Assembly (NCBI GenBank): GCA_965222225.1
Contig: CBDCTK010000002.1
Location: 5,344,001-5,408,000, forward strand
Length of the DNA: 64,000 nt
Origin: Candidatus Poribacteria bacterium
GTDB taxonomy: Bacteria > Poribacteria > WGA-4E > JAJDTR01
Direction: 5' to 3'
The position numbers and the translations under genes are program-made. The notes under the pieces are model-generated. The model did not search any database, was not told where the DNA came from, and was given only the letters and a program-made list of their open reading frames with translations. Shown in pieces: positions 7,878 to 63,570 of this stretch. The first letter of the stretch is position 1. The number at the start of each line of letters is the position of its first letter.

Positions 7878-8098
7878 GAATCTGGGAGTTTGTTTGAAAC
7901 TTTATTTTGGGTAGAGTCATTTGCCTTGAAATCAATCATGGGAATCGATAGTAATTGCGATAGAGCTCCTATAGAGATTCGGAATTAGTAGCTTGTAGCT
8001 TTTAGACTGACGACAAACATAAAACTTGGTACCCTGTCGTAAATCTTTTCGTCGCACGTAGATGTCCATAGTGACTATTCTTCTCGTAGGAGTTTGCT

Positions 8099-8953
8099 AT
8101 GGACATTTTGAATCTTATGAAAGAGTTTCCAAATCAAGAATCTTGTCTCAGATTTATAGAGGAAAAACGTTGGAAGGACGGTGTTTGCTGTATCCACTGT
8201 GGCAGTGAAAAAGTTGGACGCAAGAACAGAAACGACATTACTACTGGTTGGAATTGCTACGATTGTGAATCTAGCTTTTCGGCTACAGCAGGAACCATCT
8301 TCCATGGTACCAAGATACCTCTCCAGAAATGGTTTTTGGCTATCTCAATCCTTTCCAATGCCAAGAAAAACATATCGAGTTGTCAGCTTGCTCGTGACTT
8401 GGACATGAATCAAAAGTCCGCTTGGTATATGGCAATGCGCCTCCGTGAGAAAATGAGTGATAGTGATGAATTGCTGAAAGGGATAGTTGAAGCGGACGAA
8501 ACCTATGTCGGCGGCAAACCCAGAGCAAAATCTAAGAGAGGTAGAGGCACAAATAAATCTCCCGTCATCGGCGTAGTCGAGAGAGGCGGTCGGGTGGTTG
8601 CTAAATTCATGAAGGTTCTATCTGGTGAAAATATCAGAGAATTCATCCTTAGCAATGTCTCACCCGATGAGTCTATTCTTATGACTGATGAATTTCGCTC
8701 TTACAATAGTCTGGACGAAGATATCGAAAGACATGTTATCCATCACCAAGAGAGATATGTTTCTGAGGACGGCGTAACTCACACCAATACCATCGAGTCG
8801 GTTTGGGCTTGTGTCAAGAGGTCATTCTACGGAACGCATCATCACTACAGCAAGAAGTGGCTGCCACTGTATATCATGGAGTCTTGCTGGAAATATAATC
8901 GCAGAAAAGATGATGAGATTTTCATAAGATTTTTTGATGAATGCTTCACCTGA
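8099..8953 (+). CDS. IS1595-family (ISXO2-like) DDE transposase
   Basis: Zn ribbon CIHC..CYDC, HTH, VEADETYVGG, MTDE, HTNTIES.W motifs. Confidence 0.95.
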   Translation: MDILNLMKEFPNQESCLRFIEEKRWKDGVCCIHCGSEKVGRKNRNDITTGWNCYDCESSFSATAGTIFHGTKIPLQKWFLAISILSNAKKNISSCQLARDLDMNQKSAWYMAMRLREKMSDSDELLKGIVEADETYVGGKPRAKSKRGRGTNKSPVIGVVERGGRVVAKFMKVLSGENIREFILSNVSPDESILMTDEFRSYNSLDEDIERHVIHHQERYVSEDGVTHTNTIESVWACVKRSFYGTHHHYSKKWLPLYIMESCWKYNRRKDDEIFIRFFDECFT

Positions 8954-8971
8954 GCCACATGAATTGTTTGG

Positions 8972-9094
8972 CTATCGGTATATTCTGTCAACGACAGCAT
9001 CATGGTATGATGTAAATCCCATAGTGTTGGAAATTAAAATCCCGCAGATAACCCGCAATGCTCCCGCGAGCATGTACAAACGCTTGGTCAACAT
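8972..9094 (-). CDS. 40-aa passenger mini-ORF or remnant within IS copy 1
   Basis: GGAGG RBS then MLTKRLYMLAGALRVICGILISNTMGFTSYHDAVVDRIYR*; signal-peptide-like. Confidence 0.35.
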   Translation of the reverse strand: MLTKRLYMLAGALRVICGILISNTMGFTSYHDAVVDRIYR

Positions 9095-9675
9095 GATATG
9101 CCTCCATTTCTCTCTTATAGAGATGTATTTTAGTGTGAATCAAGATTCCGAACACTGTCTAAAGTTATTGTACATTAAGAAAAGAAAAGCAAGCAAATCA
9201 ACCAAAAAGCAGTTAACTACTAAGTCCCTAGAGATTTCCTCAAACGAGTGACTAGATCAATCGACTGAATAAAGAACACGGTAGAAATCGCGCTGTAATA
9301 GGGTTCCCATAAAAATTTTCACCAGCCTTTGAAAGGCCCTGCGTGAGATCAAGCGAGCGGATAGCGATTCCCTAGGTGTATAGCAATACTAAGTCACTTC
9401 ACATCAAATTCCAGGCGGGGCGGCAAGTGTATAACAACTGAGGTAAGTGTTTGTGCCGTTTTCTTGGATAGCTCCCGCTGCCGACCCTTGGTTCCAGAGA
9501 ATAAAACAGAGGAACGACATGCTGCACGGTGTCGGAAACCGCTGTCAACTATTTAAATGGTCAATCAACAAGGCCAGATAATCGAAATCTTCCCTGCTTT
9601 TGTTCAACGCTTGATTGGCGCTGTATGTTGTGCCGTTCGAATGTAAAGAGTCGAGCTAATACCTTATGAGAAATT

Positions 9676-10980: not shown

Positions 10981-11570
10981 GCGGTTTATTTTCTAAGTAT
11001 TTAAGGCTTACGGGACTAGCACAACAGACTAGTTCCGCAACCCCTGCAGGACAAGTTTCCAGTTCGCCCCCGGAGATCTGCCACTTAACTACGGAGGCAT
11101 ATAATACTGCTACAAGCGTTTCGCTCCAGCGGAGATCAAAGGAGTGAATAACGACTGCGATAGGGATCTTCCATTTTACCCTGTCTTAGTAGTCTATTCT
11201 CCAGCTAGTTAATACTTACGACTGCCACAAGAGACATGTTTCGCAACCCCTACGAGCCTTTACGCATAGCCAGTTCTAATCCGTGAAATCCTTTAATCCG
11301 ATCAACTGACTGGACAAGGAAGGCGATAGGGAATCCTGATTCAGACAATTAGTAAAATTCGCATGCCTCATACCTTATACTTTTAACGAATCGACCACTG
11401 AGGTCAGTTGGGGACTTGGCTGAAGTAGCAGATGGGAGAAGACCATTACTGTTGATTGTCACTAATCTTGGACTCCGACACTCGCGGCGGTTTGACCTAT
11501 CATATCAACGGCATGTTGAAGAAGGATGGGGAGTTTGTAGCGCTTGTAAATGGCATAAAGTAGGCAGGAA

Positions 11571-15449: not shown

Positions 15450-15890
15450 ACCGGATTTCGCAGCATGTCGAATGCCTCATCACCAGCAGGTTTCCCTCCC
15501 CGGTACAAACGACATAACAGGAAACCATCGACACTGGACTATAATCATTGATAGAGATTTTATAGTCCGCTGTAGGAGCGATCAAGCGACCGATTAGGGA
15601 GTGCGATAGGAATCCTCTTCAAATCGCGACCGCGATACAGCTCCCATAGAGATGGCGCCACACCGCCTGTAGGCGAGGATTGAACGAGTGAATAACGAGT
15701 GTGCGATAAAGATTCCCTCAAGTGACTTAATAGGACCAACTGAGTGAATAACGAAGGAGCAACTGACCGATAGGGGAGGCGCTAGAGTTCCCATAGAAAA
15801 TCCCACGCGATAGAAGGCCTAGGGCGATAGCTTTTCTCCGAAATTCAAGCCATTAATGCACTGTCATTTTAAAGAAATGGTATAATATAT

Positions 15891-17139
15891 CGGAATTAGT
15901 AGCTTGTAGCTTTTAGACTGACGACAAACATAAAACTTGGTACCCTGTCGTAAATCTTTTCGTCACACGTAGATGTCCATAGTGACTATTCTTCTCGTAG
16001 GAGTTTGCTATGGACATTTTGAATCTTATGAAAGAGTTTCCAAATCAAGAATCTTGTCTCAGATTTATAGAGGAAAAACGTTGGAAGGACGGTGTTTGCT
16101 GTATCCACTGTGGCAGTGAAAAAGTTGGACGCAAGAACAAAAACGACATTACTACTGGTTGGAATTGCTACGATTGTGAATCTAGCTTTTCGGCTACAGC
16201 AGGAACCATCTTCCATGGTACCAAGATACCTCTCCAGAAATGGTTTTTGGCTATCTCAATTCTTTCCAATGCCAAGAAAAGCATATCGAGTTGTCAGCTT
16301 GCTCGTGACTTGGACATGAATCAAAAGTCCGCTTGGTATATGGCAATGCGCCTCCGTGAGAAAATGAGTGATAGTGATGAATTGCTGAAAGGGATAGTTG
16401 AAGCGGACGAAACCTATGTCGGCGGCAAACCCAGAGCAAAATCTAAGAGAGGTAGAGGCACAAATAAATCTCCCGTCATCGGCGTAGTCGAGAGAGGCGG
16501 TCGGGTGGTTGCTAAATTCATGAAGGTTCTATCTGGTGAAAATATCAGAGAATTCATCCTTAGCAATGTCTCACCCGATGAGTCTATTCTTATGACTGAT
16601 GAATTTCGCTCTTACAATAGTCTGGACGAAGATATCGAAAGACATGTTATCCATCACCAAGAGAGATATGTTTCTGAGGACGGCGTAACTCACACCAACA
16701 CCATCGAGTCGTTTTGGGCTTGTGTCAAGAGGTCATTCTACGGAACGCATCATCACTACAGCAAGAAGTGGCTGCCACTGTATATCATGGAGTCTTGCTG
16801 GAAATATAATCGCAGAAAAGATGATGAGATTTTCATAAGATTTTTTGATGAATGCTTCACCTGAGCCACATGAATTGTTTGGCTATCGGTATATTCTGTC
16901 AACGACAACATCATGGTGTGCTGAAAATCCCATAGTGTTGGAAATTAAAATCCCGCAGATAACCCGCAATGCTCCCGCGAGCATGTACAAACGCTTGGTC
17001 AACATGATATGCCTCCATTTCTCTCTTATAGAGATGTATTTTAGTGTGAATCAAGATTCCGAACACTGTCTAAAATGATTGTACATTAAGAAGAGAAAAG
17101 CAAGCAAATCGACCAAAAAGCAGTTAACTACTAAGTCCC
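15891..17139 (+). mobile_element. IS1595-family insertion sequence, copy 2 (1249 bp)
   Basis: Same TIRs as copy 1; 8-bp TSD TAATATAT at 15883-15890 and 17140-17147; near-identical to 7980..9228. Confidence 0.95.
16010..16864 (+). CDS. IS1595-family DDE transposase
   Basis: 3 aa differences from 8099..8953. Confidence 0.95.
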   Translation: MDILNLMKEFPNQESCLRFIEEKRWKDGVCCIHCGSEKVGRKNKNDITTGWNCYDCESSFSATAGTIFHGTKIPLQKWFLAISILSNAKKSISSCQLARDLDMNQKSAWYMAMRLREKMSDSDELLKGIVEADETYVGGKPRAKSKRGRGTNKSPVIGVVERGGRVVAKFMKVLSGENIREFILSNVSPDESILMTDEFRSYNSLDEDIERHVIHHQERYVSEDGVTHTNTIESFWACVKRSFYGTHHHYSKKWLPLYIMESCWKYNRRKDDEIFIRFFDECFT

Positions 17140-17149
17140 TAATATATTC

Positions 17150-17230
17150 ATGCCGAAAGACTTCGATTCCTCTTCAATTGTCACATGGCGCGCCGTGTTG
17201 ATTGGTCTCCTCTTGAATCCCGACAACAAT
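17150..17230 (+). pseudogene. N-terminal fragment of a membrane protein
   Basis: MPKDFDSSSIVTWRAVLIGLLLNPDNN resembles a transporter N-terminus, then runs into repeat sequence. Confidence 0.4.
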
Positions 17231-17719
17231 CTCTCTCCGTTTCAACGCGGTTTTCTGCCTCTAGGTTCTATTGGCATCTATGTTAGGCGCGTGCATAATC
17301 GTAGGAGGATCAAAGGAATGAATAATGACTGCGATAGAACTCCCATGGAGGTCCCCACGCCCATCGGGTTGGGAGACCCAACGCCTTCGGATGCCGGTGC
17401 ATGCCTACCGATGGTTTGGGCCCTCGTCTCCCTCCAACGGATTAAGCTGTGTCTATATGCCAAAAGCACAGAGAGAACCCGTAGGAGCGGGGATCAACTG
17501 AGCGAATAGCGAAGGCGATAGAGATTTCCTCAAATGCGATCAAGCGACTGAACAAGGAGCGATCAAACGAGTGGATAGCGAGTGCGATAGAACTCCCATA
17601 GAAATCCCCTCTCCTGATCGCGACAGCCCATAGGTTGGGTTGAACCCCGTGAAACCTAACAATCAAGCTGTTCTCAATGACCGCCGGAATCCCGTGCCAA
17701 TGCACGTGATTCCCCATAG

Positions 17720-18910: not shown

Positions 18911-19667
18911 TCATAGGATTTGCACGGTGACAGGAGGTGACACGGTAGGCGCCGGTAGGAGCGATATCCCGATCGCGACTTCCTGTCGCGAGTAAAACTT
19001 GCTCTTACAATTGGTTTGTCGTAACAATCTTCAATCATCAAACTGCAAAGAGAATCTTCAAGGTGAATAGCAGGAGACTACAATAACATGAAAATGCCCA
19101 ACCCCAAATTACCCAAAGTAGCTATGTCTATTATTCAAACAGACTCTAAATGGTATTTTCGCTAAGTAATTATCGTAAAACTTATACGGTTGAGCGACGT
19201 TCCCCCTTGACAAGGGGGTTGGTATGCATCTTACGTCCGATGGCTTTAGAATTACTACTGCCACTATACACTTACAATCAAGGTAATCCCAAAATCCCAT
19301 GAATCACTGTTCAGACAATGTTAGCTACCGACACTCAACACTTACCATATATTCTTAGATCGACTTTGTACATTTGTAGGATGGAATCGGCGACCATCAA
19401 TTCCCGATTTCCCCTCTTACTGAGATCAAGCGAACGAATAGTGAGTACGGTAGAACTCCGATAGAGTTCCCACCAGCACCGTAGGCGGGGATCAAATGAA
19501 CGAATAGCGATCAACACCGACCGGATAGTGGGGGATCAAGCGAGTGAATATCGAGTGCGATAGAACTCCCATAGACAATCCCGTGCGATATAGAGATCCC
19601 CTTGCCCCGCCTTCGCCGCCACCACATAACGAATGCGTTAGAAAGCCTGCTGCGATAGCGATCCCCT

Positions 19668-20487: not shown

Positions 20488-21861
20488 TTAAATCGAATAA
20501 ATCATACGGCTGGCTTCTTCATATTCCGATTTCATGGGATCGGTTGAAAGGAATAGCTTCTGATAAGGTTCATAAAGCTGGATATAACTCCAATTAACAC
20601 CGCAAAGAATCTTCCTTTCATTTGCCAGCTTTACAAAACGACCGCGAAACTTCGCGCGCGTAGTTTCTGGCGGGAGATGCATCGCTTTGTCAACCTGTTC
20701 GTCGGTGACAATCCGCTCGACCTGATCTTTTCTTTCCAGTTTATAATATAGTCCGGTTTTCTTTTTTTCTCCTTCTTTCCGAATATTGTGATACTGAAGA
20801 TCCAGCATTGATACGTCAGCAGAATCCCAATTGAGATTTCGACTGGCAACATAAGTCTCGATTAGTTTTTTCTTGATAACCCAGTCAAGTTCCCGATCGA
20901 GAGATGATGGATCTCTTGCCAGATGCTTCAATACATATTCCCATCTTTTCATTACCTGCTCGGTGATTGGATCTGACTCTGCTTGTTCAAAATACTGTTT
21001 GGCGCACTCGAAATATTGCCATTGAAGTTCGACTGCGGAGAGCCGTTTCCCGTTCTCCAACTCAATCTTGTGTGTGCACGTCGTATCTTTTGAAATCTCC
21101 CAAATAGCTTTGACAGAGTTTCGCAATGCGAGGCGTTGTCTAATGAAATTGTCCTCTATCATGCGCAGGACGATGGCGGTTGTTCCCACCTTGAGAAAGG
21201 TGGAAAATTCGGACATGTTGGAATCGCCAACGATAACGTGCAATCGTCTGTACTTTTCCCGGTCGGCATGTGGCTCATCCCGTGTGTTGATGATGCCGCG
21301 TGCCGTCGTTGTCGCGATAGAGATTTCCTCGCGTATATGTTGGGCGCGTTGGGAGATGACGTATTTGCCGCGGTCAGTGCGTATGGCTTTACCGGCACCG
21401 GTGAAAACCTGGCGTGTTACGAAGAAGGGGATAAGCTGCGAGGCGAGTTGGCGGAAACTAACTCGGCGATCCATTAAATAGTTCTCATGACAACCGTAGG
21501 TATTTCCGGGGGTATCGGTATTGTTTTTGAAAACCGAGATTTTCCCGTAAAAGCCGTCAATCCGCATTTTTCTTTCGGCAGTGACGGAGAGCCGCTCGAT
21601 TATCCGTTCGCCAGCTTTATCATGTGTGACCAGTTCGCGTACATTGTCACATTCGGGGGTGGCATATTCGGGGTGGCAGCCGATATCTTGATAAAATCGA
21701 GCCCCATTTTCGAGGAACACATCCGGATACATTCTCCCCGAGATTATCTCTCGGAATAGGTACATCACCGCATTCTGAATCGAGAGCGCTTTTCCGCCGC
21801 TCCGCTCCGGAGTGCAGATGAGGCCATATTCGCTTTCTAGTCCGTAAATCCTACGGTCCAT
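20488..21861 (-). CDS. pafA: Pup--protein ligase
   Basis: RRIYGLESEYG, FLENGARFYQDIGCHPEYATPEC, GCHENYL, INTRDEPHAD, DLQYH. Confidence 0.93.
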   Translation of the reverse strand: MDRRIYGLESEYGLICTPERSGGKALSIQNAVMYLFREIISGRMYPDVFLENGARFYQDIGCHPEYATPECDNVRELVTHDKAGERIIERLSVTAERKMRIDGFYGKISVFKNNTDTPGNTYGCHENYLMDRRVSFRQLASQLIPFFVTRQVFTGAGKAIRTDRGKYVISQRAQHIREEISIATTTARGIINTRDEPHADREKYRRLHVIVGDSNMSEFSTFLKVGTTAIVLRMIEDNFIRQRLALRNSVKAIWEISKDTTCTHKIELENGKRLSAVELQWQYFECAKQYFEQAESDPITEQVMKRWEYVLKHLARDPSSLDRELDWVIKKKLIETYVASRNLNWDSADVSMLDLQYHNIRKEGEKKKTGLYYKLERKDQVERIVTDEQVDKAMHLPPETTRAKFRGRFVKLANERKILCGVNWSYIQLYEPYQKLFLSTDPMKSEYEEASRMIYSI

Positions 21862-21864
21862 GCC

Positions 21865-22581
21865 CTAAAACATTTTCTCGAGCTCTTCGGGAAGAAGGCG
21901 TCGAAACCTACGTCGTTCCAGTTCTTCATCAAGTAATGCGACCTCAATGGTACCAGCCACAATTTCATACCGGGGCTCTTCCGAATTTTCTTCGTCAACG
22001 TCCTCTTCAATTGTTTCGAAGGCTTTGATTCCGAGACGAATAGCATCCTCTAACGCCATTCCCTCCCTGTGTTCTTGTTCAAGAATTTCAACAATTGAAT
22101 CAGCACGCCCGCCGATAACTGCATACTGCTCCTCTTCTCCGAAGGTGCCATCGAAAGACAGATGATATATTCGATTGTTCGAGGAGGCGTCGCCTTTCAC
22201 TTCGCACACCAACAACTCGACTTCAAGCGGTTTTACATCCCATTCCCGGAAAATGGCCCCGATGCGTTGCGAGTACACTGTTGTAAGCCATTTAGCCGTG
22301 ACGTCCTCACGATTGTAGGTAAACCCTTTGATCTCCGCCTGTTCGATCCCATAAAACCTCAAGGCTTCATATTCTGGTGACAGCCCCGTTGCCGCTAAGG
22401 CAATCCGATCATACACCTCGGAAATCTTGAAAACCGTTGTCAATGGATTTTCGGCGACCATCACGATGCCACTGTTATACTCCAAAGCAATTACCTCTTT
22501 CGCCTGTTCAATGCCGCGCTGGGCAAGGTCGCGCTTATCTTGTATAATTTGCTCCGGTGACACGTAATACGGTGAGGACAT
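21865..22581 (-). CDS. prcA: 20S proteasome alpha subunit
   Basis: PYYVSPEQ...KISEVYDRI, KPLEVEL; GGAGG RBS. Confidence 0.93.
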   Translation of the reverse strand: MSSPYYVSPEQIIQDKRDLAQRGIEQAKEVIALEYNSGIVMVAENPLTTVFKISEVYDRIALAATGLSPEYEALRFYGIEQAEIKGFTYNREDVTAKWLTTVYSQRIGAIFREWDVKPLEVELLVCEVKGDASSNNRIYHLSFDGTFGEEEQYAVIGGRADSIVEILEQEHREGMALEDAIRLGIKAFETIEEDVDEENSEEPRYEIVAGTIEVALLDEELERRRFRRLLPEELEKMF

Positions 22582-22605
22582 TCTCACCTCCTTCAATTGA
22601 CGTAG

Positions 22606-23430
22606 TTAATCTTTCAATCTTTCAATCAATTCCGTGTAAAGCGATTTGACTTCGGAATCCGGGATGTCCGTAATACCTCCCTGATCGATCGCCTTGATTG
22701 TTGGAAAGATGCCTCGAATCAAATCAGGTCCGCCGGTCCCCAAATCCTCATCGGCGGCATCCCAAAGTGCTTCGGACACAATTTCCAAGATTTCATCGCG
22801 GGACATGCCAGGCCGATAAAGCTTTTTTAGCGTGGATCGCGCATCTTTACCTCCGGATCCGATGGCGTGATAAGTACTTTCGTCATAGCGTCCGCCAATT
22901 GCGTCATACTTGAAGATTCGCCCTTGCGCCTGCTTTGAATCGTAACCGGCGAAAATTGGGATAACAATCAAACCTTCCAGAGCCATATTAAGGTTCGCTC
23001 TTAGCCAGTTTGACAGAAAATTCGCCTTGCCATCCAGGCTCAACATGGTTCCTTCAACCTTTTCGTAAAACTCGACTTGAACCTGGAACAACCTTGCCAT
23101 CTCAATCGCTAAACCGGCGACGCCGGCGATAGCAATGGCGGAAGATTTGTCAATTTTAAAAACCTTTTCAATGCGTCGCTCGCCGACTTGAAAGCCGTCT
23201 GTCGCCTGGCGATCTCCGGCGATGACAACCCCTTCGTCATAAACGGCGGCTAATACCGTAGTCCCTTCAAGAAGGTCCAAAGATGAATTGGAGGAGGGGC
23301 CCGAAAGCAGGGCTGTTTGATGCGAATGTGTAGGCGGGTTTCCTGTATGAAACGGTGCTAATAAATCTGGGCGTTTCTGCCTGAGCACCTCAATAAAGTC
23401 AGAGGAGCTGTAATCGCGATCGTCGAACAC
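22606..23430 (-). CDS. prcB: 20S proteasome beta subunit (propeptide plus catalytic Thr)
   Basis: EG/TTVLA..GVVIAGDRQAT, GSGG, DAADED.GTGG. Confidence 0.93.
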   Translation of the reverse strand: MFDDRDYSSSDFIEVLRQKRPDLLAPFHTGNPPTHSHQTALLSGPSSNSSLDLLEGTTVLAAVYDEGVVIAGDRQATDGFQVGERRIEKVFKIDKSSAIAIAGVAGLAIEMARLFQVQVEFYEKVEGTMLSLDGKANFLSNWLRANLNMALEGLIVIPIFAGYDSKQAQGRIFKYDAIGGRYDESTYHAIGSGGKDARSTLKKLYRPGMSRDEILEIVSEALWDAADEDLGTGGPDLIRGIFPTIKAIDQGGITDIPDSEVKSLYTELIERLKD

Positions 23431-23432
23431 GA

Positions 23433-23633
23433 CTACTGTCCTCCCCTTTGAATGTAATTCTCGACAAATTCTTCGGAATCTTCTTCTAAGATTTCATCAA
23501 TCTCATCAAGAATTTGGTCAAGGTCTTCCGAGAGTTCTTCGCCCTGCTCGGCGAGTTCGGCATCCGGTTGAATGTCCTCAATATCCTGAGGCCTCTTATC
23601 TCGCTGCTCCTTCTCTTGTTTTTCGGATCGCAT
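23433..23633 (-). CDS. pup: Prokaryotic ubiquitin-like protein Pup
   Basis: LDQILDEIDEILEEDSEEFVENYIQRGGQ C-terminus. Confidence 0.93.
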   Translation of the reverse strand: MRSEKQEKEQRDKRPQDIEDIQPDAELAEQGEELSEDLDQILDEIDEILEEDSEEFVENYIQRGGQ

Positions 23634-23867
23634 TTTGCCCCCTTTCGGATTCTGCAATCGAGAATAATATCAGCTAATAAGGAAAAATAGATCTGGGACT
23701 GGCACGACGCAACTGAGAAACTTCAACCCAATGGTTGACAACACTGAAAGCCCTCGCTTTCAGCCCAAAACGTGAGTTGCGTGGCTCAATAGTTTAGAGC
23801 CCGTTTTCTACACTACAATCCCTGTAGGAGCAATCTCCGGATCGCCACCTCATTTTCAAACAGACTC

Positions 23868-25358: not shown

Positions 25359-25406
25359 AATCGGTTCGTGATTCAAGGCGAGTCGGTCCGCGCCGTTTCC
25401 TCAAGA

Positions 25407-28863: not shown

Positions 28864-29098
28864 AAACTTGTTTGAAAATTAATTCGTAGCAACACCATTT
28901 GCTCTGAAACCAAGTTTTTCATCAGCGCTCATGTAGGTGCACACCGCGATCAAGGCAACGAGCATCAACTGCGATTGAGATTCTACCAGCCTTTGCCCCG
29001 TGGATTATACTCTTTTGGAGCGAACTCCAGCTCGCGAAAAAACTCGCTCAACGCAAATGACCAAAGATAGCTTCGCCATCTATTATTCAAACAAGCTC
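28864..29098. mobile_element. MITE-like family B (TIR ~GAGCCTGTTTGAA)
   Basis: AAACTTGTTTGAA ... TTCAAACAAGCTC; shared subterminal AAATGACCAAA...TATTATTCAAACA. Confidence 0.6.
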
Positions 29099-30386: not shown

Positions 30387-30639
30387 CGTTCAATCACTTA
30401 TCCATCAAGGCAATCGTACCTGATTCTAAACTAGGCACTCTTGTAGGGTGCGCACTGCGATCAAGGGAGTGAGTAGCGACCAGGATAGAGATCCCACCAG
30501 CCTTTGAAAACTCTAGCGGACGACAGGTAGTATGGTAGCGGAAACTTCGAATGTACACAGCCGATTCGAGAGAAACACGGACAAACTACAAGCAAATCCC
30601 CATCCTTCCCGACTTCCGCCCTTTGAGCGCCTCCCTGAA

Positions 30640-33165: not shown

Positions 33166-33229
33166 TCGGAGAATAGCCTTGACAATCTGGGCACTGCGCA
33201 ATAAAATAATCACGTAGTAGAAGCATTAA

Positions 33230-33469
33230 GAGCCTGATTGAAAAGTACAGGAAAAGTACAGTTTGTAGGGTGCGATCAAAGGAATGAATAATGACTGCGA
33301 TAGAGATCCCCTGCGCACCAGCCTCTAAAAGCCCCAGAGTGGGATCAAGGGAGCGAATAGCCACTGCGATAGAGATTCTACAGGTATGTAGCAGCCAACA
33401 ATGAAAACATGAAAAAACTTTCTACAAATGACCAAAAATGGCTTTGCCGCCGATTATTCAAACAGGTTC
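33230..33469. mobile_element. MITE-like family B copy carrying a REP and two GA-hairpin units
   Basis: TAA|GAGCCTGATTGAA ... TTCAAACAGGTTC|TGA. Confidence 0.65.
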
Positions 33470-33535: not shown

Positions 33536-34555
33536 ATGGATGTGAAGTATACTGTTCTGATGACCGATTACGCATGGCCCTCGGTTGAACCCGAGCGCAA
33601 GGTACTGTCTGAGATCGGAGCAGAACTAATCGTCGCTGAAACGGGGGCTGAAGATGAATTGGTAAGCTTGGCGCCGCAATCCGATGGCATCCTTACATGC
33701 TGGGAGCAGACGACTACCGCCGTCATCAGAGCGGCTGAGCGTTGTCAAGTCATAGGACGTTGCGGCATCGGGCTTGATAACATTGATGTGAATACTGCAA
33801 CCGAGCTTGGAATTGTTGTCACCAATGTGCCGGCATATTGCATTGACGAAGTCTCCGATCACGCGATGGCTCTGTTATTGGCGTGTGCTCGGAAGATTTC
33901 CATCTTTGACCGGGAAGCCAAACGCGGCAGTTGGGTACGAGATGTAGGTCCCCCGGTGTACCGAATTCGCGGCAAAACGCTGGGCATTATGGGGTTCGGC
34001 AAGATTGGGAAAGCCGTAGTGCCGAAAGCGAAAGCCTTCGGACTTGATGTCATTGTCTACTCGCCGAGCCTATCCTCACAGGTTGCGGAATCGTGCGGTG
34101 TCCAAAAAGTTGAACTCCCTGAGTTGCTGATGCAATCCGACTTCATCACGATTCACGCGCCGCTGAATTCTAGGACTGAAAACCTCCTAGGGAAAGAGGA
34201 ATTTCGTCAGATGAAAGAGACTGCTTATGTCATCAACACGTCGCGAGGCGGGATCATTGACACGGCCGCGCTTTGTACGGCCGTACAAAAGGGGTGGATC
34301 GCTGGAGCAGGTTTGGATGTACTGGCTGAAGAACCTCCGGCGCCGGATGAACCGCTGATTGAATTGGATAATATTGTTATTACACCACACGCCGCCTTCG
34401 CATCTGAAGAATCAACATACGACCTTGAGGTGAGTGCTGCACGTGCCGTCGCGGATGTATTGAGTGGGAAAATGCCGGGGTCCGTCGTTAACCGAGAAGT
34501 TTTGGAAAGCCCGCTGCTTCGCGCAAAAGCGCTTGGCGATCAACCGAGTGGATAG
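33536..34555 (+). CDS. D-2-hydroxyacid dehydrogenase (SerA/CtBP-like)
   Basis: GIGLDNID, GIMGFGKIG, INTSRGGII, AGLDV..EP, ITPHAAF. Confidence 0.92.
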   Translation: MDVKYTVLMTDYAWPSVEPERKVLSEIGAELIVAETGAEDELVSLAPQSDGILTCWEQTTTAVIRAAERCQVIGRCGIGLDNIDVNTATELGIVVTNVPAYCIDEVSDHAMALLLACARKISIFDREAKRGSWVRDVGPPVYRIRGKTLGIMGFGKIGKAVVPKAKAFGLDVIVYSPSLSSQVAESCGVQKVELPELLMQSDFITIHAPLNSRTENLLGKEEFRQMKETAYVINTSRGGIIDTAALCTAVQKGWIAGAGLDVLAEEPPAPDEPLIELDNIVITPHAAFASEESTYDLEVSAARAVADVLSGKMPGSVVNREVLESPLLRAKALGDQPSG

Positions 34556-34811
34556 CGAGGGCGATAGAGATTCCCTCAAGCAAGCGAGTGATTAGCGATC
34601 AGCCGAACGAATAGTGAGGGATCAAGTGACTGAACAAGGGGCGCGATAGAGTTCCCATAGTAAATCCCGTGCGATAGAAATTCACTAGCCACTGCCCACT
34701 GCTTTAAGTTGCCATGCTTTCCAGAGTCGAAAACGCGTAATCCGATACCGTATATTTTTAGCGAATAAACCACTAAGTCGAGGTGCAAGGAGAGGTGCAA
34801 GGAGTTGTTAC

Positions 34812-36011: not shown

Positions 36012-36452
36012 AACCTGCCAAGAACCATCAGCCGTGTAGGAGCGACCTCCTGGTCGCGATTCCTTGCGGAATCGACAATCGTCAAATCACCGATTTCCCT
36101 TCTTCTCTTTCTTTGTAGGGATCAACCGACCGAATAGGATCAAGCGAGCGATTAGCGAGTGCGATAGAGATCTTAAGGCGATAGAAATCCCTGCGCAAAT
36201 CTGCGTTCCCTACTCTCACACACCATCGCTTTTACTAGCCACAGCCCACGTTTACCGATATCCGCTCTTCTCTTTTTGCCTCCTCATTCATCGCATCTCC
36301 GTCTCAAGCGAAGTTAAGAGCACTCTCACACCCCATAATCAGATGAAACCTCCCTCGTAGCGTCCTACATCTCGCTTGCTTTTGGAATGCCCTAGTGCTA
36401 TAATTGCCAAAATTGAAATGGCGTCAAATCCTAACTCGTTAAGGAAATCAAC

Positions 36453-42573: not shown

Positions 42574-42774
42574 GGACCTGTTTGAAGATCTAGTTGGAGT
42601 AGGGTGCGCACTGTGTTCAAGCGAGTGGATAACGAGTGCGACGGAGATTTCTATTCAATCATCAAATCGAAAATGGGATCTTGACAGGCGATAGCAGGTG
42701 ACAACAGAAACATGAAAAAAGCCCCTCCTCAAATGACCAAAAATGGCCTTGTCACCTATTATTCAAACATACTC
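42574..42774. mobile_element. MITE-like family B copy abutting the thrC stop codon
   Basis: TAA|GGACCTGTTTGAA ... TTCAAACATACTC. Confidence 0.55.
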
Positions 42775-43340: not shown

Positions 43341-43594
43341 CCTTCCACTTCACATCCCGAATATCCTGTTTGAAATTCAATTTGGAATAGCCCGAATTGC
43401 TCCGAAACCGAGTATTTTCCTGAAAAGAGATCTCTATCGCACTCCTTATTCAGTCGCTTGATCGGTTGCTACATCCCTTCCATTCTTCCCATCTTCCATC
43501 CTTCTCCATTCTCTTTTCTATTGAACTCCAAATCCATCTCTGTTAAAATTCACGCAGTCGTCTTGTATAATGAATACACACCAGCTTGTTACTA

Positions 43595-43825
43595 ATACCA
43601 TTTCGCTTGAATAATAGTGCATATGATGTTTTGATTATATCATTCACTTTCTCCGTAGGCGGGGATCAAACGAGTGAACAACGATCAACTGAGTGATTAA
43701 CGAAGGCGATAGAGATCCCCTTGCCCCGCCGACTTTGCGCGGAGATAAGACTTCCTACTCTGCCCATACAATTTTCTTTACTTAATCCGCGTAATCAATG
43801 CACTTGAATTTTAGAGAAGTGGTAT
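43595..43825. mobile_element. MITE-like family C (ATACCA-N15-AGTGCAT ... ATGCACT-N15-TGGTAT)
   Basis: Inverted ends with identical 15-nt spacing; further right ends at 15856-15883 and 54534-54561. Confidence 0.6.
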
Positions 43826-45980: not shown

Positions 45981-46174
45981 AGCCTTTAAAAGCGACGGTG
46001 TGCGATCAACCGAGCGAATAACAAGCACGACAGTGTTTCCATAGAGATTCCACCAGCCTTTGAAAGCGCGAGCGGTGCGATTGGTATATCACATGTATTG
46101 CAGGCGACAACCAAAGCGTGAAAAGACCTCTCCCAAAATGCCCAAAAAATAGCTTTGCCGCCCATTACACACAG

Positions 46175-47240: not shown

Positions 47241-47722
47241 AACTTCACACCCAAAACCAAAGATTAAGAACCCGTTGGAAAACTCATTTCGAGTAGAACC
47301 ACCGCTCTGAAACTAACCTTTATTCAAGATTAAATCCCTGCACCAGTCTTTGCAAGCCCCAGAGTGGGATCAACTGAGCGGATAGCGAAGGCGATAGAGA
47401 TCTTAAAGGTTGGAGGATGTTAGAATCCGCCGGCGACTTTTCCCGATGCATCGGGCTGGGTGAAACACGAGTTCGAGTCTACAGGGAAGACTTTTTCAAT
47501 GGCCAACCAAAAAGACTAGATGGTTAAAACTTCACCCGCTTTTCTGGAACACTTGATTGACACCGTCTGTTGTACTGCTTAAATGTACAAAGTCAAACTA
47601 AGACCTCGCCCTTTCATCTGTGCTAAAATCTGTAACGGTCAGGCAGATATGAGACACTCCGAACTGTTCCCCTCCCGACCCTACGGAAACAAACTCCTGC
47701 GATTGGTGACGCATTGCAAAGC

Positions 47723-47850
47723 GTAGGGGTTGGGATCAACTGACTGGATAAGGAAGGATCAAGGGAATGGATAATGACCGATCAAGCGAATGAATAATGA
47801 GCGCGATAGCAAATCCCAATAGAACTCCCATAGAGATCCCCCCAACCCGT
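47723..47850 (+). repeat. REP hairpin containing three nested ~36-nt GA-hairpin units (representative of ~25 loci)
   Basis: Three GATCAA heads (47734, 47757, 47780) followed by three ATAG..TCCC tails inside GTAGGGGTTGGG...CCCAACCC. Confidence 0.85.
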
Positions 47851-52616: not shown

Positions 52617-53048
52617 TGGAAAATTAGAAAACTATCAGGGCAATCGCATCTGATTGTGAATGTATTGTAGAGTGGGCACCGCCCACCGCTTTTCGCCTTA
52701 TTGATTCACCACATGCGAAACACCAACGTGCGATCTGCAATCATCAAGTTACCGATTTCCCTTCTTCTCTGCTTTGTAGAGATCAACCGACCGAATAGGA
52801 TCACGCGAGCGATTAGCGAGTGCGATAGAGATCTTAAGGCGATAGAAATCCCTGCGCAGATCTGCGTTCCTTATCCTCTACTCGCCATCGCATTTACTGA
52901 TCGTTGGCGACTGTTCTTGCCGGTTTCCATCGGTAACCATCAAATCCCCAATTTTCCCCCTTCCCATCGCTTTTCATTTCTTCGTCTTGCCTAGTCTTAC
53001 ACTCTTTGCCCAGCCTTGTCACGGAGGCATACCTCACCACTATTATCG

Positions 53049-54392
53049 CTAAACCTTCTCACCCACCTTCTCCCTAGCTTCCAAAACCTTCGACACCACA
53101 GATTTGACATCATCCTCATCGACAAATGGTGACAGGATGTATGACTTCAAAGCGACGATAGGCTCGCCGTAACTGGTTCGCCGATAGCAATCCGTTATCG
53201 AAATGACAACCCCCTTGCCCGCCATCGCCTCCGAATGCACATAGTTATAGATCTCTCGGTTGTAGTCGTTATGTGAGAGCAAGCTATCGCGATCCGCTTC
53301 ATCCTCAAACTCCTGTCGCTTGATGGAAAACGTGTCCACACCAATCGGATAGGCGCGAAATAGCGTGACAGTACCGAAATTATCTCGATTCAACACGGTA
53401 GTGCCCTCCTGCCCTTCAAGATGTTCACGCAGCAGTTGCGTCATTTCAACAATGTGTCCAAGAACAGCTTGCAAACCCTCCTCGCCGAACAGGCGAAAAT
53501 TGGCGAGAGCCGCAAGCGGCCCCGTCCCCGATCTGGAGGTCTCAAGCGTGAACATTCCGGGGCGGTAGTCCCCAAAGTGATACAGATACGGCATCTGTTC
53601 CGGGTGTCGAGTCACCAATTCCAAATCCGATTGATCTTTGACGAGAACCAGGCTGGAAATATAAGGCGCAAACCCCGTTTTGTGAAAATCAATTCCAATG
53701 GAGTCCGCAAGAGATAAATGTCGTATTCGCCGACATGCCCCTGCTAACGCGCGGATGGTGCGTGGACGAAACCCGAGGCGGTCCTTCTCGATATCGTACT
53801 CCTTGAACACCGACCATGCCCACCTGATAACTGCGTCCGCGTGAATCTGCGGCTTGTAGTCAAGCTGAAACTCATCAACCAGCGTGTCGCGTAACGTCGC
53901 AATACTCTCTAAATCGTCTAATCCGAACGAATCGGTGGTGCCCGATGTCGCAATGATGGCGGCAATTTTTTTCCCGTCTCCTAATGCCGTACGATCCTGT
54001 TGCTCTAGTTGGGGGAGGTCAATTTCGTTTTCGACTGTTGTCGGGATTGTAATCAGATTGTTCGTTCCGATTCCTAGCCATCCCACAATGTTGGATGCGC
54101 AGTAGTGCCCCGCATCCGACACGAAAACCGCAATCTCTTCGGGCGTACCCTTCTGCATTGTTCCCGCACAGGTTTTCTCCAAGCCAAGCTTCACGCCATA
54201 GAGTGTTGTCCCGGTGCCGCCAAAAGTAAACACACCGCTCGATTTCTCCGGATCATAACCTATCAATCTGGAGGTCATGGCGACGACTTCAACCTCAGCC
54301 AATGCAACCAAACGGCTATACTAATCCCATGAGATATTCGGATTGTGCAAAGAGGCTAAGAGTACCCCAATCACGCTTGGAATTGTCGGCGG
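53049..54392 (-). pseudogene. Group II PLP-dependent decarboxylase, 5'-truncated with an internal stop
   Basis: FTFGGTG, GTTD..DD, HADA, DFHKTG; upstream in-frame PPTIPSVIGVLLASLHNPNISWD*YSRL ends abruptly at the repeat at 54392. Confidence 0.8.
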
Positions 54393-54888
54393 GGATCAAC
54401 CGAGTGAACAGCGAGGGCGATAGTAAATCCCAAAGTGAGTGATCAAGCGACTGGATAAGGAGCGCGATAGAACTCCCATAGAGATCTTCTTGCCCCGCAT
54501 CGGAAAGACTTGATTGATGATGTTAATGCACTAATGCACTGTAAATAAAGGGAGATGGTATTACTTATCTTCGCCCGTTACTCCCTATGAAGTGAAGATA
54601 TCCAATGTGCCCATTCACCTGCTCACGAACACGGCAAGGGAATCATATCCATCGGCCCTCTTCGACAGATAGAGTTTCGTGGCGATCAAAGGAATGAATA
54701 GTGACTGCGATAGAGTTCCTTCCGCTCTCCCATCCATCCGTCTTTCCCTTTCTCCGCTTTAATAGCCTGCAGGTTGGGAGAACAATCAACGGAATGGATA
54801 ATGACCACGATAGCGCTCCCACCATCCTTTTGAAAGCACTGGCGGCACCAAAACCAACTAAGTGAAATGGCAAAACAATAGCTACATC

Positions 54889-57020: not shown

Positions 57021-57504
57021 ACCGAAAGTTGTCCTTTTGTGTTTCGCTACTACAAATTTGATCTTGACGGTTTCTTCGGAAACGTAGCAGACGCGCAAAT
57101 TGTACCACATCCTGTGCGTGTTGAAAACACATATATGGGACGGCACCTATACCGTCCCATGAGTGTTGTAGGGATCGATCCTACCTTTGTCGCCTTTAGG
57201 AGGGAATTCCGATTTCCGACACTAGATAGCCAGTTGTAGGGTGGGATCAAAGGAATGGACAATGACTGCGATAGAGATCCCCCGCCCACCATTAAATACC
57301 TATTGGTAATTTACGTCTTCATGTTTGAAGAGGACAAATCGCGACACAATCAAATCATTTTGAACGGAGTTGACCGTCTTGTCAAGCGTACCATTCACCA
57401 GAGACAATTTGATGCTTGCATTAAAAGCCGGACTGTGATAGTGTCTAAGGCCACAAAGCCGCATGGTATTCCTCTACGAATAACAACAACGAGACGAAAA
57501 CAAG

Positions 57505-58157: not shown

Positions 58158-58366
58158 ATCTAGGAACGCTGAGACTGTTTGAGACCCCAAACTGAATAAA
58201 TCCACCGTAGGAGCGATCAAACGAGTGGACAACGTGAGCGATAGCAGATCCCATAGTGAGGGCGATAGAAATCCCACTCCGAATCGCGACTTTCTGACGC
58301 TGCGTAATTCTTAAATTGAGAAATCACCCTGAATCTGAAACCAAGTGAGACAAGGAGGAGTTGGCA

Positions 58367-60361: not shown

Positions 60362-60649
60362 GACGATGTCTGCGAATATTCCACTTAAAACCGAGTTTTT
60401 TCTTGAAATCTCGATTTTTAAAAATGGTTTGGAACAACCAGCCATCAGCAAATCGCCGATTTTCCCTCTTATTGCGATCGGGCGAGTGAATAACGATCAA
60501 CTGAGATCAAACGAGTGAATAATGTGCGCGATAGCGATCTTTGATAGCGAAGGCGATAGTAAATCCCATAGTGAACGCGATAGCAAATCCCGTGCGATAG
60601 AGATTCCATAGAACACGGTGAGACCCAACTATTTAGCTGCCCCGTCTCC

Positions 60650-61306: not shown

Positions 61307-61326
61307 TCAAACACCTAGGTATAAAA

Positions 61327-62553
61327 TTACGAATTGTGCATCATGCCTGTTGTGCCGGGATCACCAGCTACCAATGCCTCGTACATTCCTTGCAATTTTT
61401 CCCCGATTCGCCGCCAATCGTATTCGGCTTCGACACGTCGCCTCCCGTTGTCGCCAAGTTCCCGTCGCATCGCTTTGTCTACCATCAAATGAACAACGGC
61501 ATCGGCAAACTTGGTTGGCTCGTCGGCAATCATAATTTCATCTCCCACTGTCAAATTCAATCCCTCGGCACCAACGCTTGTCGACACGACCGCCTTACCC
61601 ATAGCCAATGCCTCTAGAATTTTCAGACGTGTGCCGCCGCCAATCCTTAACGCCACAACATAAACCGTGGCGCGTGCGATATGCGGTTTAACGTCGTCAA
61701 CTCGACCGGTGACGACAACTCCGGGGCGATTGCCGTAACGCTTCAAGCGCTCGGTGGGAGACTGGCCGACAACATAGAATCTCAAGTTTGGATACTTTGT
61801 CTGAATTATGGGAAGTATTTCCTCTATAAAGTAGATAGCGGCATCTTCGTTCGGAAACCAATCCATACTACCCGTATAAATTAGCGCTGTCTCCTCTTCA
61901 TCTTCATGATTTGGCTGATACAGCTCGGTATCAACACCGTTGGGAATCACGTCCGCACTAAGGCCCGGACAAATCTCATTCATGAGATTGCGGTCGACCT
62001 CTGACGCACAAGCGACAAGGTCAAAACGATTGCTCATGGTACGCTCGTATCGTCTAAACGCGCGCTCCTGCGTCCAAAAAACGCATTTTCGAAGAGGGTT
62101 TGACGTTTGTTCGCGAAGGCGGCGCCAGATGTGCGAATCAACGTTCTGCAGGGATAGCAAACTCTTTGCGTTTGTTCCTAGGTGATACTGACCGGTATGG
62201 AGCATCTCATAGTGGATAAGATCAAAGCTACCCGTCTCCAGCAATGAATGGAACTCTCGCCGAAATGCGGGCACATCATACCGTGCAACAGTCAGTGGTT
62301 TTCGCTTCAAAGCCGCTTGGCTCCCGGATCGTAGGTTGATTAGTGGTAAACGGGAGCAACGTGGAACAAGGTGCGCTTCAATCCCAAGACTCCGAAGATA
62401 CTCAGTTCCTTCCCCGTCTGTCGGTTGTGTTTCTAAGGCTAAAAACGTAACCCGGTTCCGCTGAGCGACCTGCTTGAGAAGATTCAGCACCCGAAGGCGC
62501 CCGCCGTCAGTCGCTGGAAAGGGGACAGTGATTGATAGGAAAAGAAGTCTCAT
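61327..62553 (-). CDS. Glycosyltransferase family 4
   Basis: PFP..DGG, IPNGVD, GSMDW.PN, GGGTRLKILEALAMG. Confidence 0.92.
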   Translation of the reverse strand: MRLLFLSITVPFPATDGGRLRVLNLLKQVAQRNRVTFLALETQPTDGEGTEYLRSLGIEAHLVPRCSRLPLINLRSGSQAALKRKPLTVARYDVPAFRREFHSLLETGSFDLIHYEMLHTGQYHLGTNAKSLLSLQNVDSHIWRRLREQTSNPLRKCVFWTQERAFRRYERTMSNRFDLVACASEVDRNLMNEICPGLSADVIPNGVDTELYQPNHEDEEETALIYTGSMDWFPNEDAAIYFIEEILPIIQTKYPNLRFYVVGQSPTERLKRYGNRPGVVVTGRVDDVKPHIARATVYVVALRIGGGTRLKILEALAMGKAVVSTSVGAEGLNLTVGDEIMIADEPTKFADAVVHLMVDKAMRRELGDNGRRRVEAEYDWRRIGEKLQGMYEALVAGDPGTTGMMHNS

Positions 62554-62945
62554 AAGCCAGTTTCAATCGTAAGCCTAACATTTTGAGGACAATGTGGAAG
62601 AAAGGTACACGCTCCCCGCCAGATTGGGAAATCCAACAACTCTTCATTCAACCGTTTGTTTGGCCTTCGTTCTTTTGCTCCAGAGCGGGATGGAGATTGG
62701 TCTTCGACGTTTGTAAAACGGGTATAGCTTCCCTTCTTCTGCTCTTCCTAGTCGATATGGAAGATAAACCATTGTTATTCAATCTCACCTAGGAACAGTT
62801 TTGTAGGGTGCGCACTGCGCACCAGCCTTTGAAAGCGCCAGCGGCGCGACAGGCAACAACACTCAAATGCCCAAAAAGGGCTTTGCCTTCTACTTTTCAA
62901 ACAGGCTATTATTAATCGAACTCGCCTAGAAGCAGGTTCGAAAGT

Positions 62946-63281
62946 TCAATATAGCTGGTCCGTCTTTGCCGCTGCGATGAAATCGTTGCGGTGCAATCCT
63001 CGTATTTTGTGAGTCCACCACGTGACCGTCACTCTGCCCCATTCTGTCAAAAGTGCGGGGTGATGCCCTTCCGCCTCCGCCAATTCTCCCACCTTGTTTG
63101 TGAAGGACAGCGCTTGGGGAAAATCGTCGAATTTGAAAACACGCTCCAGCCTCTTGATGTTCTCGCGTTCCACAATCTCCCATTCCGGGGTTTGTGGTAG
63201 AAATTCTGCAATCTCTGCCTCCGTAACTCTAGGGGCGTCTCTCCGACATGCAACACATTTCATTTGCGTTAACTCAGCCAT
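62946..63281 (-). CDS. phhB: Pterin-4a-carbinolamine dehydratase
   Basis: [29 protein letters not shown]. Confidence 0.95.
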
Positions 63282-63570
63282 AATTCTTAGCTCCTATAAA
63301 TTGTTTGGTGATTCCGCTACCCACGAATCTTTAGCAAAGCAATTGTATTATCCTAAATCTGACAGGAATTTTCAACAGATATAGAACCTACCCAATTCGG
63401 CGTGTAGGAGCGATCAAGCGAACGAATAGTGAGTGCGATAGAGGTCCTCTCCAGCTCGCGACGAAACCGAGTTTTTTTCTTCAAAACTCGGTTTCTTTCT
63501 TGCAAAATTTCGACAGATGCAATCTACGACTGTCAAATTCCTGATACGACCATGCGGCAGGTAATTTCAA

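Follow-up and report, generated by a model that had tools for sequence, protein, structure and literature searches.

The intergenic regions of a sponge-symbiont Candidatus Poribacteria genome contain about a thousand copies of a dispersed element, 30-37 nt in length, that is probably a lineage-restricted miniature mobile repeat and resembles in its behaviour both repetitive extragenic palindromic (REP) sequences and small dispersed repeats (SDRs). We describe this element starting from a 64-kb stretch of DNA (hereafter, the window; C2:5344001-5408000 of G000, a 5.70-Mb metagenome-assembled genome (MAG) in two contigs), for which an earlier note, made without database searches, had reported dispersed units with a covarying hairpin. 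The conserved core of the element consists of 30 nt, namely the head GATCAA, the hairpin XX-GA-YY-G-NNN-A-Y'Y'-GA-X'X' and GCGATAG, and is followed by a genus-specific tail of 4-7 nt; the core is delimited in this manner because a second lineage that carries the element has a different tail and a free base before GATCAA. The hairpin comprises three tiers, ATC/GAT, XX/X'X' and YY/Y'Y', with the purine mismatches AA/GC and GA/GA between them and a G-NNN-A cap; putative sheared G.A pairs are plausible within this fold.

The covariation was quantified among 807 genomic copies that match the strict skeleton NN-GA-NN-G-NNN-A-NN-GA-NN-GCGATAG, in which no condition is set on X or Y; 650 of these copies have the exact GATCAA head, and the tail core GCGATAGARATCCC occurs 1204 times in the genome. 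The predicted pairs form in 95.3% (X1-X'2; 52% after shuffling), 95.3% (X2-X'1; 54%), 96.8% (Y1-Y'2; 50%) and 97.1% (Y2-Y'1; 79%) of the copies, compared with 13-55% in six mis-registered pairings that served as controls. No pair is broken in 698 copies (mean of 99.5 and maximum of 126 upon shuffling of the 3' arms), and the fully paired stems come in 89 distinct combinations. The flanks are unique for 740 copies. The four pairs have mutual information values of 0.80, 1.05, 1.22 and 0.44 bits, and no other combination of columns, loop and tail included, exceeds 0.26 bits; because it is confined to the four pairs, the covariation does not reflect subfamily structure. In the smaller sample of 32 window copies, 91.4% of the cells are paired, compared with 58.5 +/- 3.1 in shuffled sets, none of 500 of which reached this value; double changes are found at all 4 pairs, and sliding the partner by 1-3 columns reduces the pairing to 20-55%. 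RNAalifold recovered the same four pairs together with an invariant ATC/GAT basal stem under an AA/GC internal loop. Thus, the covariation of XX/X'X' and YY/Y'Y' around an invariant GA/GA that was originally noticed in the window holds genome-wide. With respect to the closure of the base, which had been proposed as ATC/GAT or GGGATC/GATCCC, the former stands as the invariant RNAalifold stem and the latter is not confirmed, its pairing being at the shuffle value; in general, an outer GATC/GATC or GGGATC/GATCCC stem shows no covariation, the columns being either too conserved or paired at the shuffle rate.

The bases at the variable pairs are restricted and polar: T is nearly absent at X1 and Y1, A is nearly absent at X2, and Y2 is C or T only. 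Because each pair uses a restricted set of bases, some base identity is read in addition to the fold, so that the original suggestion that the fold is read rather than the sequence is only partly borne out. A role of the variable stem as a target guide or address was considered and rejected, given that the mutual information between the stem and the flanks (12 upstream and 20 downstream positions) is at most 0.08 bits, with a null maximum of 0.02.

Within the window, units were sought with the full pattern (up to three mismatches), with the tail core (up to two mismatches) and with a covariance model that was trained on the 32 full-pattern window units and then run on the window at E<=1. The tail core has 35 matches, 34 on the plus strand and 1 on the minus strand, compared with 1.08 +/- 1.12 in shuffled windows (35 was reached in 0 of 100 shuffles). 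The full pattern is found in 32 units, 31 of them on the plus strand, and the covariance model yields 45 matches (32 full and 13 partial), including 43 on the plus strand and 39 at E<=0.013, with 32 copies having been used in training. Between 7930 and 63450, these units make up some 24 intergenic clusters (Table 1); the earlier note had counted more than 40 units at approximately 25 intergenic loci. All ten example units singled out at that time read as described, nine by the full pattern and one, at 47757, which is truncated by a nested insertion, by direct reading of the sequence.

At the variable pairs of the 807 copies, G.T cells far outnumber A.C cells (355 vs 40), in accord with the statement of the earlier note that deviations are mostly G.T wobbles. 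An excess of about tenfold shows that it is the written strand that has to pair. The accompanying proposal of a single-stranded functional form is thereby upheld as far as pairing on the written strand only is concerned, and the orientation of the copies on the chromosome is consistent with single-stranded DNA (ssDNA); the ssDNA state itself, the class of the enzyme discussed below and the sheared G.A pairs are what we infer.

Orientation was analysed for the 805 chromosomal strict copies. It is unrelated to transcription: in gaps between co-directional genes, 258 copies run with and 242 against both flanking genes, and the two orientations are represented by 51 and 42 copies in convergent gaps and by 76 and 75 copies in divergent gaps. 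Orientation is regionally clustered, with neighbouring loci matching in 338 of 496 consecutive pairs. When the net orientation per 50-kb bin was compared with the GC skew after removal of the coding-strand component, a correlation of r = -0.58 was obtained, and none of 111 circular shifts was as extreme (minimum -0.29); the written strand is the C-rich strand for 569 of the copies. This residual skew behaves as a replication skew because it covaries with the TA skew (r = 0.42) and because dnaA (G000:C2 2609861-2611192, that is, at 2.61 Mb) lies beside a switch from minus to plus; its profile is patchy, which is unsurprising given that a single insertion sequence (IS) is present here in about 45 copies. 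Hence the orientation of the element follows a replication-type skew, not transcription, which fits an ssDNA form that is read by a protein. In the genome of a sister species, searched with a narrower pattern, the strands are mixed and patchy.

The same polarity characterizes conventional REPs of this genome. In three GTAG REP families (GTAGGGTGCGCACTGCGCACC, GTAGGAGCGA..TCGC and GTAGGTTGGGTTGA), 63-79% of the copies (104/140, 93/148 and 63/80) carry GTAG on the C-rich strand; the accessible portions of the REP literature that we searched contain no discussion of a replication-linked polarity of GTAG REPs. The units are co-oriented with these REPs, GTAG being found 328 times and CTAC 61 times within 40 nt upstream. 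The polarity persists in 68% of the 325 copies, out of 805, that lack both GTAG and CTAC within 40-45 nt.

The units are frequently nested, both in other repeats and in one another. At 72 of the 393 GTAGGGTG REP sites, a unit directly follows GTAGGGTG(C/G)G and replaces the loop found in uninterrupted copies, so that occupied sites read GTAGGGTG(C/G)G-ATCAA...GATCC(C)-CTGCGCACC and uninterrupted ones read GTAGGGTGCGCACTGCGCACC. In a GCCCC-hairpin repeat, GCCCCnnnGGGGCGACAGGT, GGGG is followed by a unit in 9 to 13 cases according to two counts. Overall, CG or GG precedes 80% of the 807 copies, the head of another unit is located within 30 nt upstream of 24%, and GTAG within 16 nt upstream of 27%, compared with a background of 4.5%; where GTAG is present near the element, it belongs to the host REP. 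In the nest at 47734-47840, the units at 47734 and 47757 are cut after X'X', and a complete unit (47780-47818) is followed by both displaced tails.

Comparison of species within the genus, which are 77-87% identical in their coding sequences, shows turnover of units in the same intergenic gaps. In the gap after a gene for a 1292-aa protein, the unit lies within a REP loop in G000, 18 nt further on in G031 and G122, and in the opposite orientation in G019, whereas in G010, G115 and G103 the REP is uninterrupted and the unit is not there. Another filled site in G000 corresponds to an empty site in G010, adjoining a remnant of a gene for a REP-associated tyrosine transposase (RAYT). Three species share an orthologous copy downstream of an IS200-like gene (the L001 type, see below), in which a change from A-T to G.T preserves the pair. 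The great majority of the chromosomal copies, 744 of 805, lie outside crude gene calls, and 61 lie inside, with the calls covering 80% of the chromosome. Single copies occupy 339 of the 497 loci, and 37 of the 158 multi-copy loci are of mixed orientation. One 3-kb region (G000:C2:2705827-2708920) contains 22-24 units in alternating orientations with recurrent spacings of 52, 66 and 122 nt and may be an amplified composite array. The window stretch is present in 20 of 24 listed public sequencing runs, from 9 studies; joints spanning units in contigs from four public runs were considered as possible alleles and rejected, since their short sides and multi-copy depth indicate paralogous forms.

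A survey of 121 Poribacteria genomes with the exact pattern, using the reversed pattern as a control, detected the element in 15. It is present in all 8 genomes of its own genus (390-1011 copies each), in all 4 genomes of one genus of a different family (123-150 copies each) and, at 1-2 copies, in three further genomes; 106 genomes lack the exact pattern, and the control gave no matches. In the second lineage, TCTT.. takes the place of AGATCCC after GCGATAG, and no fixed base precedes GATCAA. Among public genome contigs, at least 80 loci match the element, and all 80 among the matches listed belong to Candidatus Poribacteria MAGs; viral contigs yielded no matches. No description of the element was found in the literature on Poribacteria REPs, miniature inverted-repeat transposable elements, dispersed repeats or REPINs (REP doublets forming hairpins), as covered by article texts outside supplementary files.

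Taken together, these observations are probably best explained by a family of non-autonomous miniature mobile DNA repeats, the folded written strand of which is moved by an HUH/Y1 enzyme. The functional form would be the single written DNA strand folded as a three-tier mini-hairpin, and an enzyme that is presumed to be of the RAYT or IS200 type would act on it in trans at replication forks, binding the irregular hairpin together with the conserved flanks and moving the unit. Only copies that still fold would be propagated, giving rise to the compensatory pattern. The cleaved strand could be transferred to a free 3'-OH of the nascent lagging strand, where, in our interpretation, the element sits; it has been proposed, in the part of the source available to us, that a monomeric RAYT could transfer a cleaved strand to any free 3'-OH (PMC3479197). 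A resident RAYT acting in trans is suggested by the polarity and co-orientation shared with GTAG REPs and by the AA/GC mismatch, which matches that of E. coli, where TnpA-REP is reported to need a REP hairpin with a mismatched C:A / A:G bulge, in which AA faces GC (PMC3479197, PMC3733652; in the excerpts available). A bolder version of this scheme, which we put forward tentatively and would not call likely, is that the element is an ssDNA hyper-parasite without an enzyme of its own, inserted into the GTAG strand of RAYT-held REP hairpins or at nascent lagging-strand 3' ends and selected only for the three-tier fold with the fixed AA/GC and GA/GA. If true, it would be the smallest transposable unit with a recognition code, consisting of shape and a few purines, that can be read from about 1000 natural variants.

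Several observations weigh against movement of a folded DNA strand by an HUH/Y1 enzyme. With DNA nearest-neighbour parameters, the hairpin is predicted in none of six copies (minimum free energy (MFE) of 0 to -2.2 kcal/mol), with z-scores of 0.04 to 1.11 in all six, whereas in five of the six the MFE structure obtained with RNA parameters is the covarying fold, complete with its ATC/GAT base. The 3' junctions of the insertions are not clean, 1-2 target bases (CA or CG) usually being missing, and this loss is not explained by simple peel-and-paste. The element carries neither the GTAG nor the CGTC of the respective REPs and has GATAG 3' of the hairpin instead. The polarity is the reverse of that of IS200/IS608, in which the active strand is reported to lie in the lagging-strand template, which is G-rich, whereas the element is on the C-rich strand. 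Furthermore, no cognate enzyme emerged among the four Y1 families examined, each of which has its own, different conventional repeat, and co-occurrence does not identify one either: three Y1 families are present in 76, 66 and 27 of the 121 genomes, beyond the genera that bear the motif. In our judgement, the orientation of the copies outweighs the energy models because these treat tandem G.A in DNA poorly; we therefore favour a protein-assisted ssDNA form, the choice between DNA and RNA being inferred from orientation, not from folding.

The check for HUH/Y1 genes that had been recommended for this element returned five Y1_Tnp matches in the genome; none of the Y1 families examined has the motif as its own flanking repeat. 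The best match, L001, is IS200-like by NCBIfam, with ISDra2 TnpA as the nearest PDB structure. Three of the five (L001, L003 and L005) have motif copies alongside, and each of these genes was rejected as a cognate transposase by adjacency because the copies are insertions into the genes' own REPs; comparison with other genera and species indicates that they are secondary insertions. The repeats that belong to the four families are GCCCCnnnGGGGCGACAGGTGTATAG for the L001 type, GTAGGAGCGAyCTCC..GGTCGC for family B, GTAGGTTGGGTTGA for family C, a classic RAYT, and GGACAACC..GGTTGTCCCTAC for family D. The L001-type gene is embedded in tandem GCCCCnnnGGGGCGACAGGTGTATAG arrays at L013, L016, L017 and other loci; the arrays are sense upstream and antisense downstream, in a REPtron-like manner, and the protein scores as IS200, not RAYT (NCBIfam). 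At L053 in G010, a RAYT of family D has three GGACAACC..GGTTGTCCCTAC REP hairpins in and around the reading frame, one of which is translated within the 209-aa open reading frame. An IS1595-family element of 1.25 kb, with window copies at 7979-9230 and 15881-17151, encodes a 284-aa DDE transposase with a zinc ribbon and is present in about 45 near-identical copies in the genome; it looks recently active and is a likely source of the patchy skew profile. This element was rejected as a mobiliser of the motif or as an IS that targets it, given that its approximately 45 copies are all at unrelated AT-rich sites.

Among the alternatives to a mobile DNA repeat, the one that survives best, unlikely as it is, is a replication-polar ssDNA signal that serves the host, for instance in priming, in primosome assembly or in the landing of a protein on one replicative strand, with copies retained by selection at each locus. 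The polarity relative to the replication-type skew, the strong intergenic restriction (only 61 of 805 copies inside the crude gene calls, which span 80% of the chromosome) and the retention in three species of the orthologous copy by the L001-type gene, with its A-T to G.T change, all speak for such a signal. However, polarity need not imply a special host function because ordinary GTAG REPs have the same polarity, and a host signal is difficult to reconcile with the changing occupancy of the same intergenic gaps from one species to another, with the nesting of units in themselves and in other repeats, with a density that varies greatly, 22 copies being clustered within 3 kb in one region, and with the absence of the element from many related genera.

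We also deem it improbable that the element functions as RNA, either as a transcript hairpin, for instance one with tandem G.A and G.U pairs that binds a protein or affects stability, or by spreading via RNA and reverse transcription. The folding results favour RNA: besides being the MFE structure in five of six copies with RNA parameters, the covarying fold has an ensemble frequency of 0.41-0.80 with these parameters and is not predicted with DNA parameters, and tandem G.A and G.U pairs are classic features of RNA. Nevertheless, the RNA-parameter z-scores relative to shuffles are weak (-0.13 to -1.52), and orientation is indifferent to the flanking genes (258 vs 242 copies, 51/42 and 76/75) and tracks the replication-type skew. 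Rfam yielded no matches at the gathering score in the whole window and none even at E<=10 in 33200-34700, in keeping with the earlier note, in which the element was not recognised as a described riboswitch. The reverse transcriptase genes that were also to be looked for amount to a single borderline match (27.5 bits) in G000, and IS110 has no match in this genome; accordingly, neither was retained as a mobiliser.

Least likely of all, the element might be a by-product module of REP/BIME (bacterial interspersed mosaic element) processing, made and shuffled by RAYT cleavage and strand transfer between conventional REPs: this would account for the GTAG within 16 nt of 27% of the copies, for the co-orientation and common polarity with GTAG REPs and for the replacement of target bases at the junctions instead of clean insertion, and would agree with the proposed RAYT transfer to any 3'-OH (PMC3479197, as far as the available text goes), but the 325 copies without GTAG or CTAC nearby, 68% of them polar, the element's own conserved head, tail and covarying hairpin, which are unrelated in sequence to the host REPs, and the absence of the element from genera rich in GTAG REPs and RAYTs all speak against it.

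Apart from the repeats, the window encodes a Pup-proteasome gene set on the minus strand (20488-27218), including the proteasome ATPase (25407-27218) and Dop (23868-25376), both NCBIfam equivalogs; this system is unusual outside Actinobacteria and Nitrospirae. Elsewhere in the genome, a second, divergent DnaA-like gene (G000:C2:602661-603779; 317.6 bits, below the cut-off of 343.9) is located 2 Mb from the canonical dnaA.

Table 1. Units of the element in the window (CM, covariance model; stems are given as XX/YY..Y'Y'/X'X')
Unit	Positions	Strand	Basis
Degenerate, immediately 5' of IS1595-family insertion	7930..7972	+	CM 24.7 bits; sequence read
Near-full, tail ACGGTAG	9251..9293	+	full pattern; CM 38.1 bits
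Partial	9343..9373	+	CM 22 bits
Full, AG/GT..AC/CT	11130..11172	+	full pattern; CM 55.8 bits
Full, CT/CT..AG/AG	11296..11338	+	full pattern; CM 45.2 bits
Full, GC/CC..GG/GT, within loop of GTAGGAGCGAT..ATCGCGAC REP	15576..15618	+	full pattern; CM 55.4 bits
Degenerate	15674..15718	+	CM 22.3 bits
Degenerate, then stacked tails	15753..15794	+	CM 31.5 bits
Full, AG/AT..AT/CT	17304..17346	+	full pattern; CM 56.6 bits
Full, CT/GC..GC/AG	17488..17530	+	full pattern; CM 58.4 bits
Full, AC/GT..GC/GT	17557..17599	+	full pattern; CM 58.6 bits
Near-full, GC/AC..GT/GT	19420..19462	+	full pattern; CM 51.1 bits
Nested stack: 2 head fragments, full unit (19530-19572), stacked tails	19490..19602	+	CM 58, 18.1 bits
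Full, GG/GT..AC/CC, head AATCAA	28638..28680	+	full pattern; CM 57 bits
Decayed, 3 mismatches	28944..28986	+	full pattern; CM 39 bits
Near-full, GG/GT..GC/CC	30455..30497	+	full pattern; CM 52.2 bits
Full, AG/AT..AT/CT, within GTAGGGTGCG..CTGCGCACC REP	33270..33312	+	full pattern; CM 62.7 bits
Near-full, GG/GC..GC/CT	33339..33381	+	full pattern; CM 57.6 bits
Full, CC/GT..GC/GG	34534..34576	+	full pattern; CM 58 bits
Near-full, GT/CT..AG/GC	34616..34658	+	full pattern; CM 50.4 bits
Full, GC/GC..GC/GT, then additional tail 36178-36191	36134..36176	+	full pattern; CM 56.4 bits
Decayed	42611..42653	+	full pattern; CM 51.2 bits
Full, GC/CT..AG/GT, sole full minus-strand copy in window	43425..43467	-	full pattern; CM 58.3 bits
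Full, CT/GT..AC/AG	43679..43721	+	full pattern; CM 57.6 bits
Decayed	46000..46042	+	full pattern; CM 44.1 bits
Full, CT/GC..GC/AG	47364..47406	+	full pattern; CM 58 bits
Three-deep nest of units	47734..47840	+	sequence read; CM 52.7, 16.7 bits
Near-full, GC/GC..GC/GT, additional tail 52839-52852	52795..52837	+	full pattern; CM 51.5 bits
Full, CC/GT..GC/GG	54390..54432	+	full pattern; CM 51.3 bits
Full, GC/CT..AG/GC	54437..54479	+	full pattern; CM 57 bits
Full, AG/AT..GT/CT	54680..54722	+	full pattern; CM 53.4 bits
Near-full, CG/AT..AT/CC	54780..54822	+	full pattern; CM 47.1 bits
Full, AG/AT..AT/CT	57241..57283	+	full pattern; CM 58.5 bits
Near-full, with additional tail	58211..58277	+	full pattern; CM 44.8, 12.5 bits
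Near-full (60501-60543), then partial (60575-60609)	60501..60609	+	full pattern; CM 48.1, 15.3 bits
Full, GC/AC..GT/GT	63408..63450	+	full pattern; CM 59.7 bits

What this analysis adds is a genome-wide statistical account of the covariation, the asymmetry between the strands, a replication polarity held in common with GTAG REPs, the elimination of four Y1 families as cognate and a survey of the element across the phylum. To our knowledge, present understanding of hairpin discrimination by RAYT and IS200-type HUH enzymes comes from just a few crystal structures. With about 800 copies per genome, 89 paired stem combinations and fixed mismatches, the element amounts to a natural experiment in saturation mutagenesis on a minimal ssDNA recognition site and is a useful natural test case for shape recognition of REP-type repeats. 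The replication-linked orientation of REP-type repeats is relevant to the place and time of their processing. In addition, the element marks Poribacteria as a second lineage with near-minimal mobile DNA, after, reportedly, some cyanobacteria.

Among known systems, the closest parallels are with REPs. The element conforms to the general description of a REP as a high-copy intergenic stem-loop of 20-40 nt (807 copies, 744 of 805 intergenic, with a covariation-backed hairpin) and, going by the portions of the REP sources available, shares with GTAG REPs and BIMEs the organization as imperfect hairpins that are short, numerous and intergenic and have conserved unpaired flanks, in clustered and mosaic arrangements, and with the GTAG REPs of E. 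coli a purine-rich mismatched stem bulge, the AA/GC at the foot of its hairpin being identical; the GTAG REPs of G000 also have the same replication-strand polarity. In contrast, the tiers of the element's stem are 2-3 bp long, whereas the stems of E. coli REPs are of about 10 bp, and binding of E. coli REPs is reported to be abolished by randomisation of the stem, which in the element is combinatorially variable (both as described in the available text). Unlike in GTAG REPs, copies at a locus are mostly co-oriented, not in inverted pairs, and no RAYT gene in the four Y1 families examined is flanked by the element in inverted orientation (the REPtron arrangement). Because it has no GTAG tag and no REPtron arrangement, the element is REP-like but not a member of the REPs.

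The other close parallel is with the SDRs: Elhai et al. (2008, Genome Res 18:1484) reportedly described SDR1-8 of Nostoc punctiforme as small dispersed repeats of tens of nucleotides without a dedicated transposase. These tiny repeats were reportedly taken to be mobile because of their nesting in others and in themselves, and the element likewise is under about 40 nt and is nested in other repeats and in itself; it differs in phylum and in its unrelated sequence, and it shows a covarying three-tier hairpin with fixed GA/GA and AA/GC mismatches and a replication polarity. Integron attC sites are folded single strands recognised by structure, as the element would be, with conserved unpaired bases, variable paired sequence and an importance of replication orientation; they are 57-141 nt long, flank gene cassettes and need IntI.

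IS200-type ssDNA transposons show a replication-linked orientation bias (PMC3971601, in the part available). With the subterminal hairpins of IS200/IS605 elements and their derivatives, the palindrome-associated transposable elements (PATEs), the element would share strand-specific imperfect ssDNA hairpins that are substrates of an HUH/Y1 enzyme, insertion 3' of a short target without duplication and a replication-tied orientation. It differs from them in having a single hairpin of approximately 30 nt, not distinct left and right ends, in its opposite polarity, the folding strand being the C-rich one, and in the loss of target bases at the 3' junction. Identity with a PATE was rejected given the single hairpin and the fact that a different repeat, in inverted copies, flanks the IS200-like gene of the L001 type. 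REPINs, as far as the accessible text describes them (PMC3116915), are also non-autonomous miniature mobile DNA in which compensatory changes keep the hairpin, but they are inverted doublets, whereas the element is a single hairpin, with 339 of 497 loci single-copy and 37 of 158 multi-copy loci mixed. A CRISPR array was rejected because the spacing in clusters is irregular (29 to 272 nt), orientations are mixed in the largest cluster and most loci are singletons. Thus, the element is indeed undescribed, as had been surmised, in the sense that it has no REP, CRISPR or Rfam identity, but it does not represent a new category; rather, it is a mobile repeat of the REP/SDR type nested in REPs.

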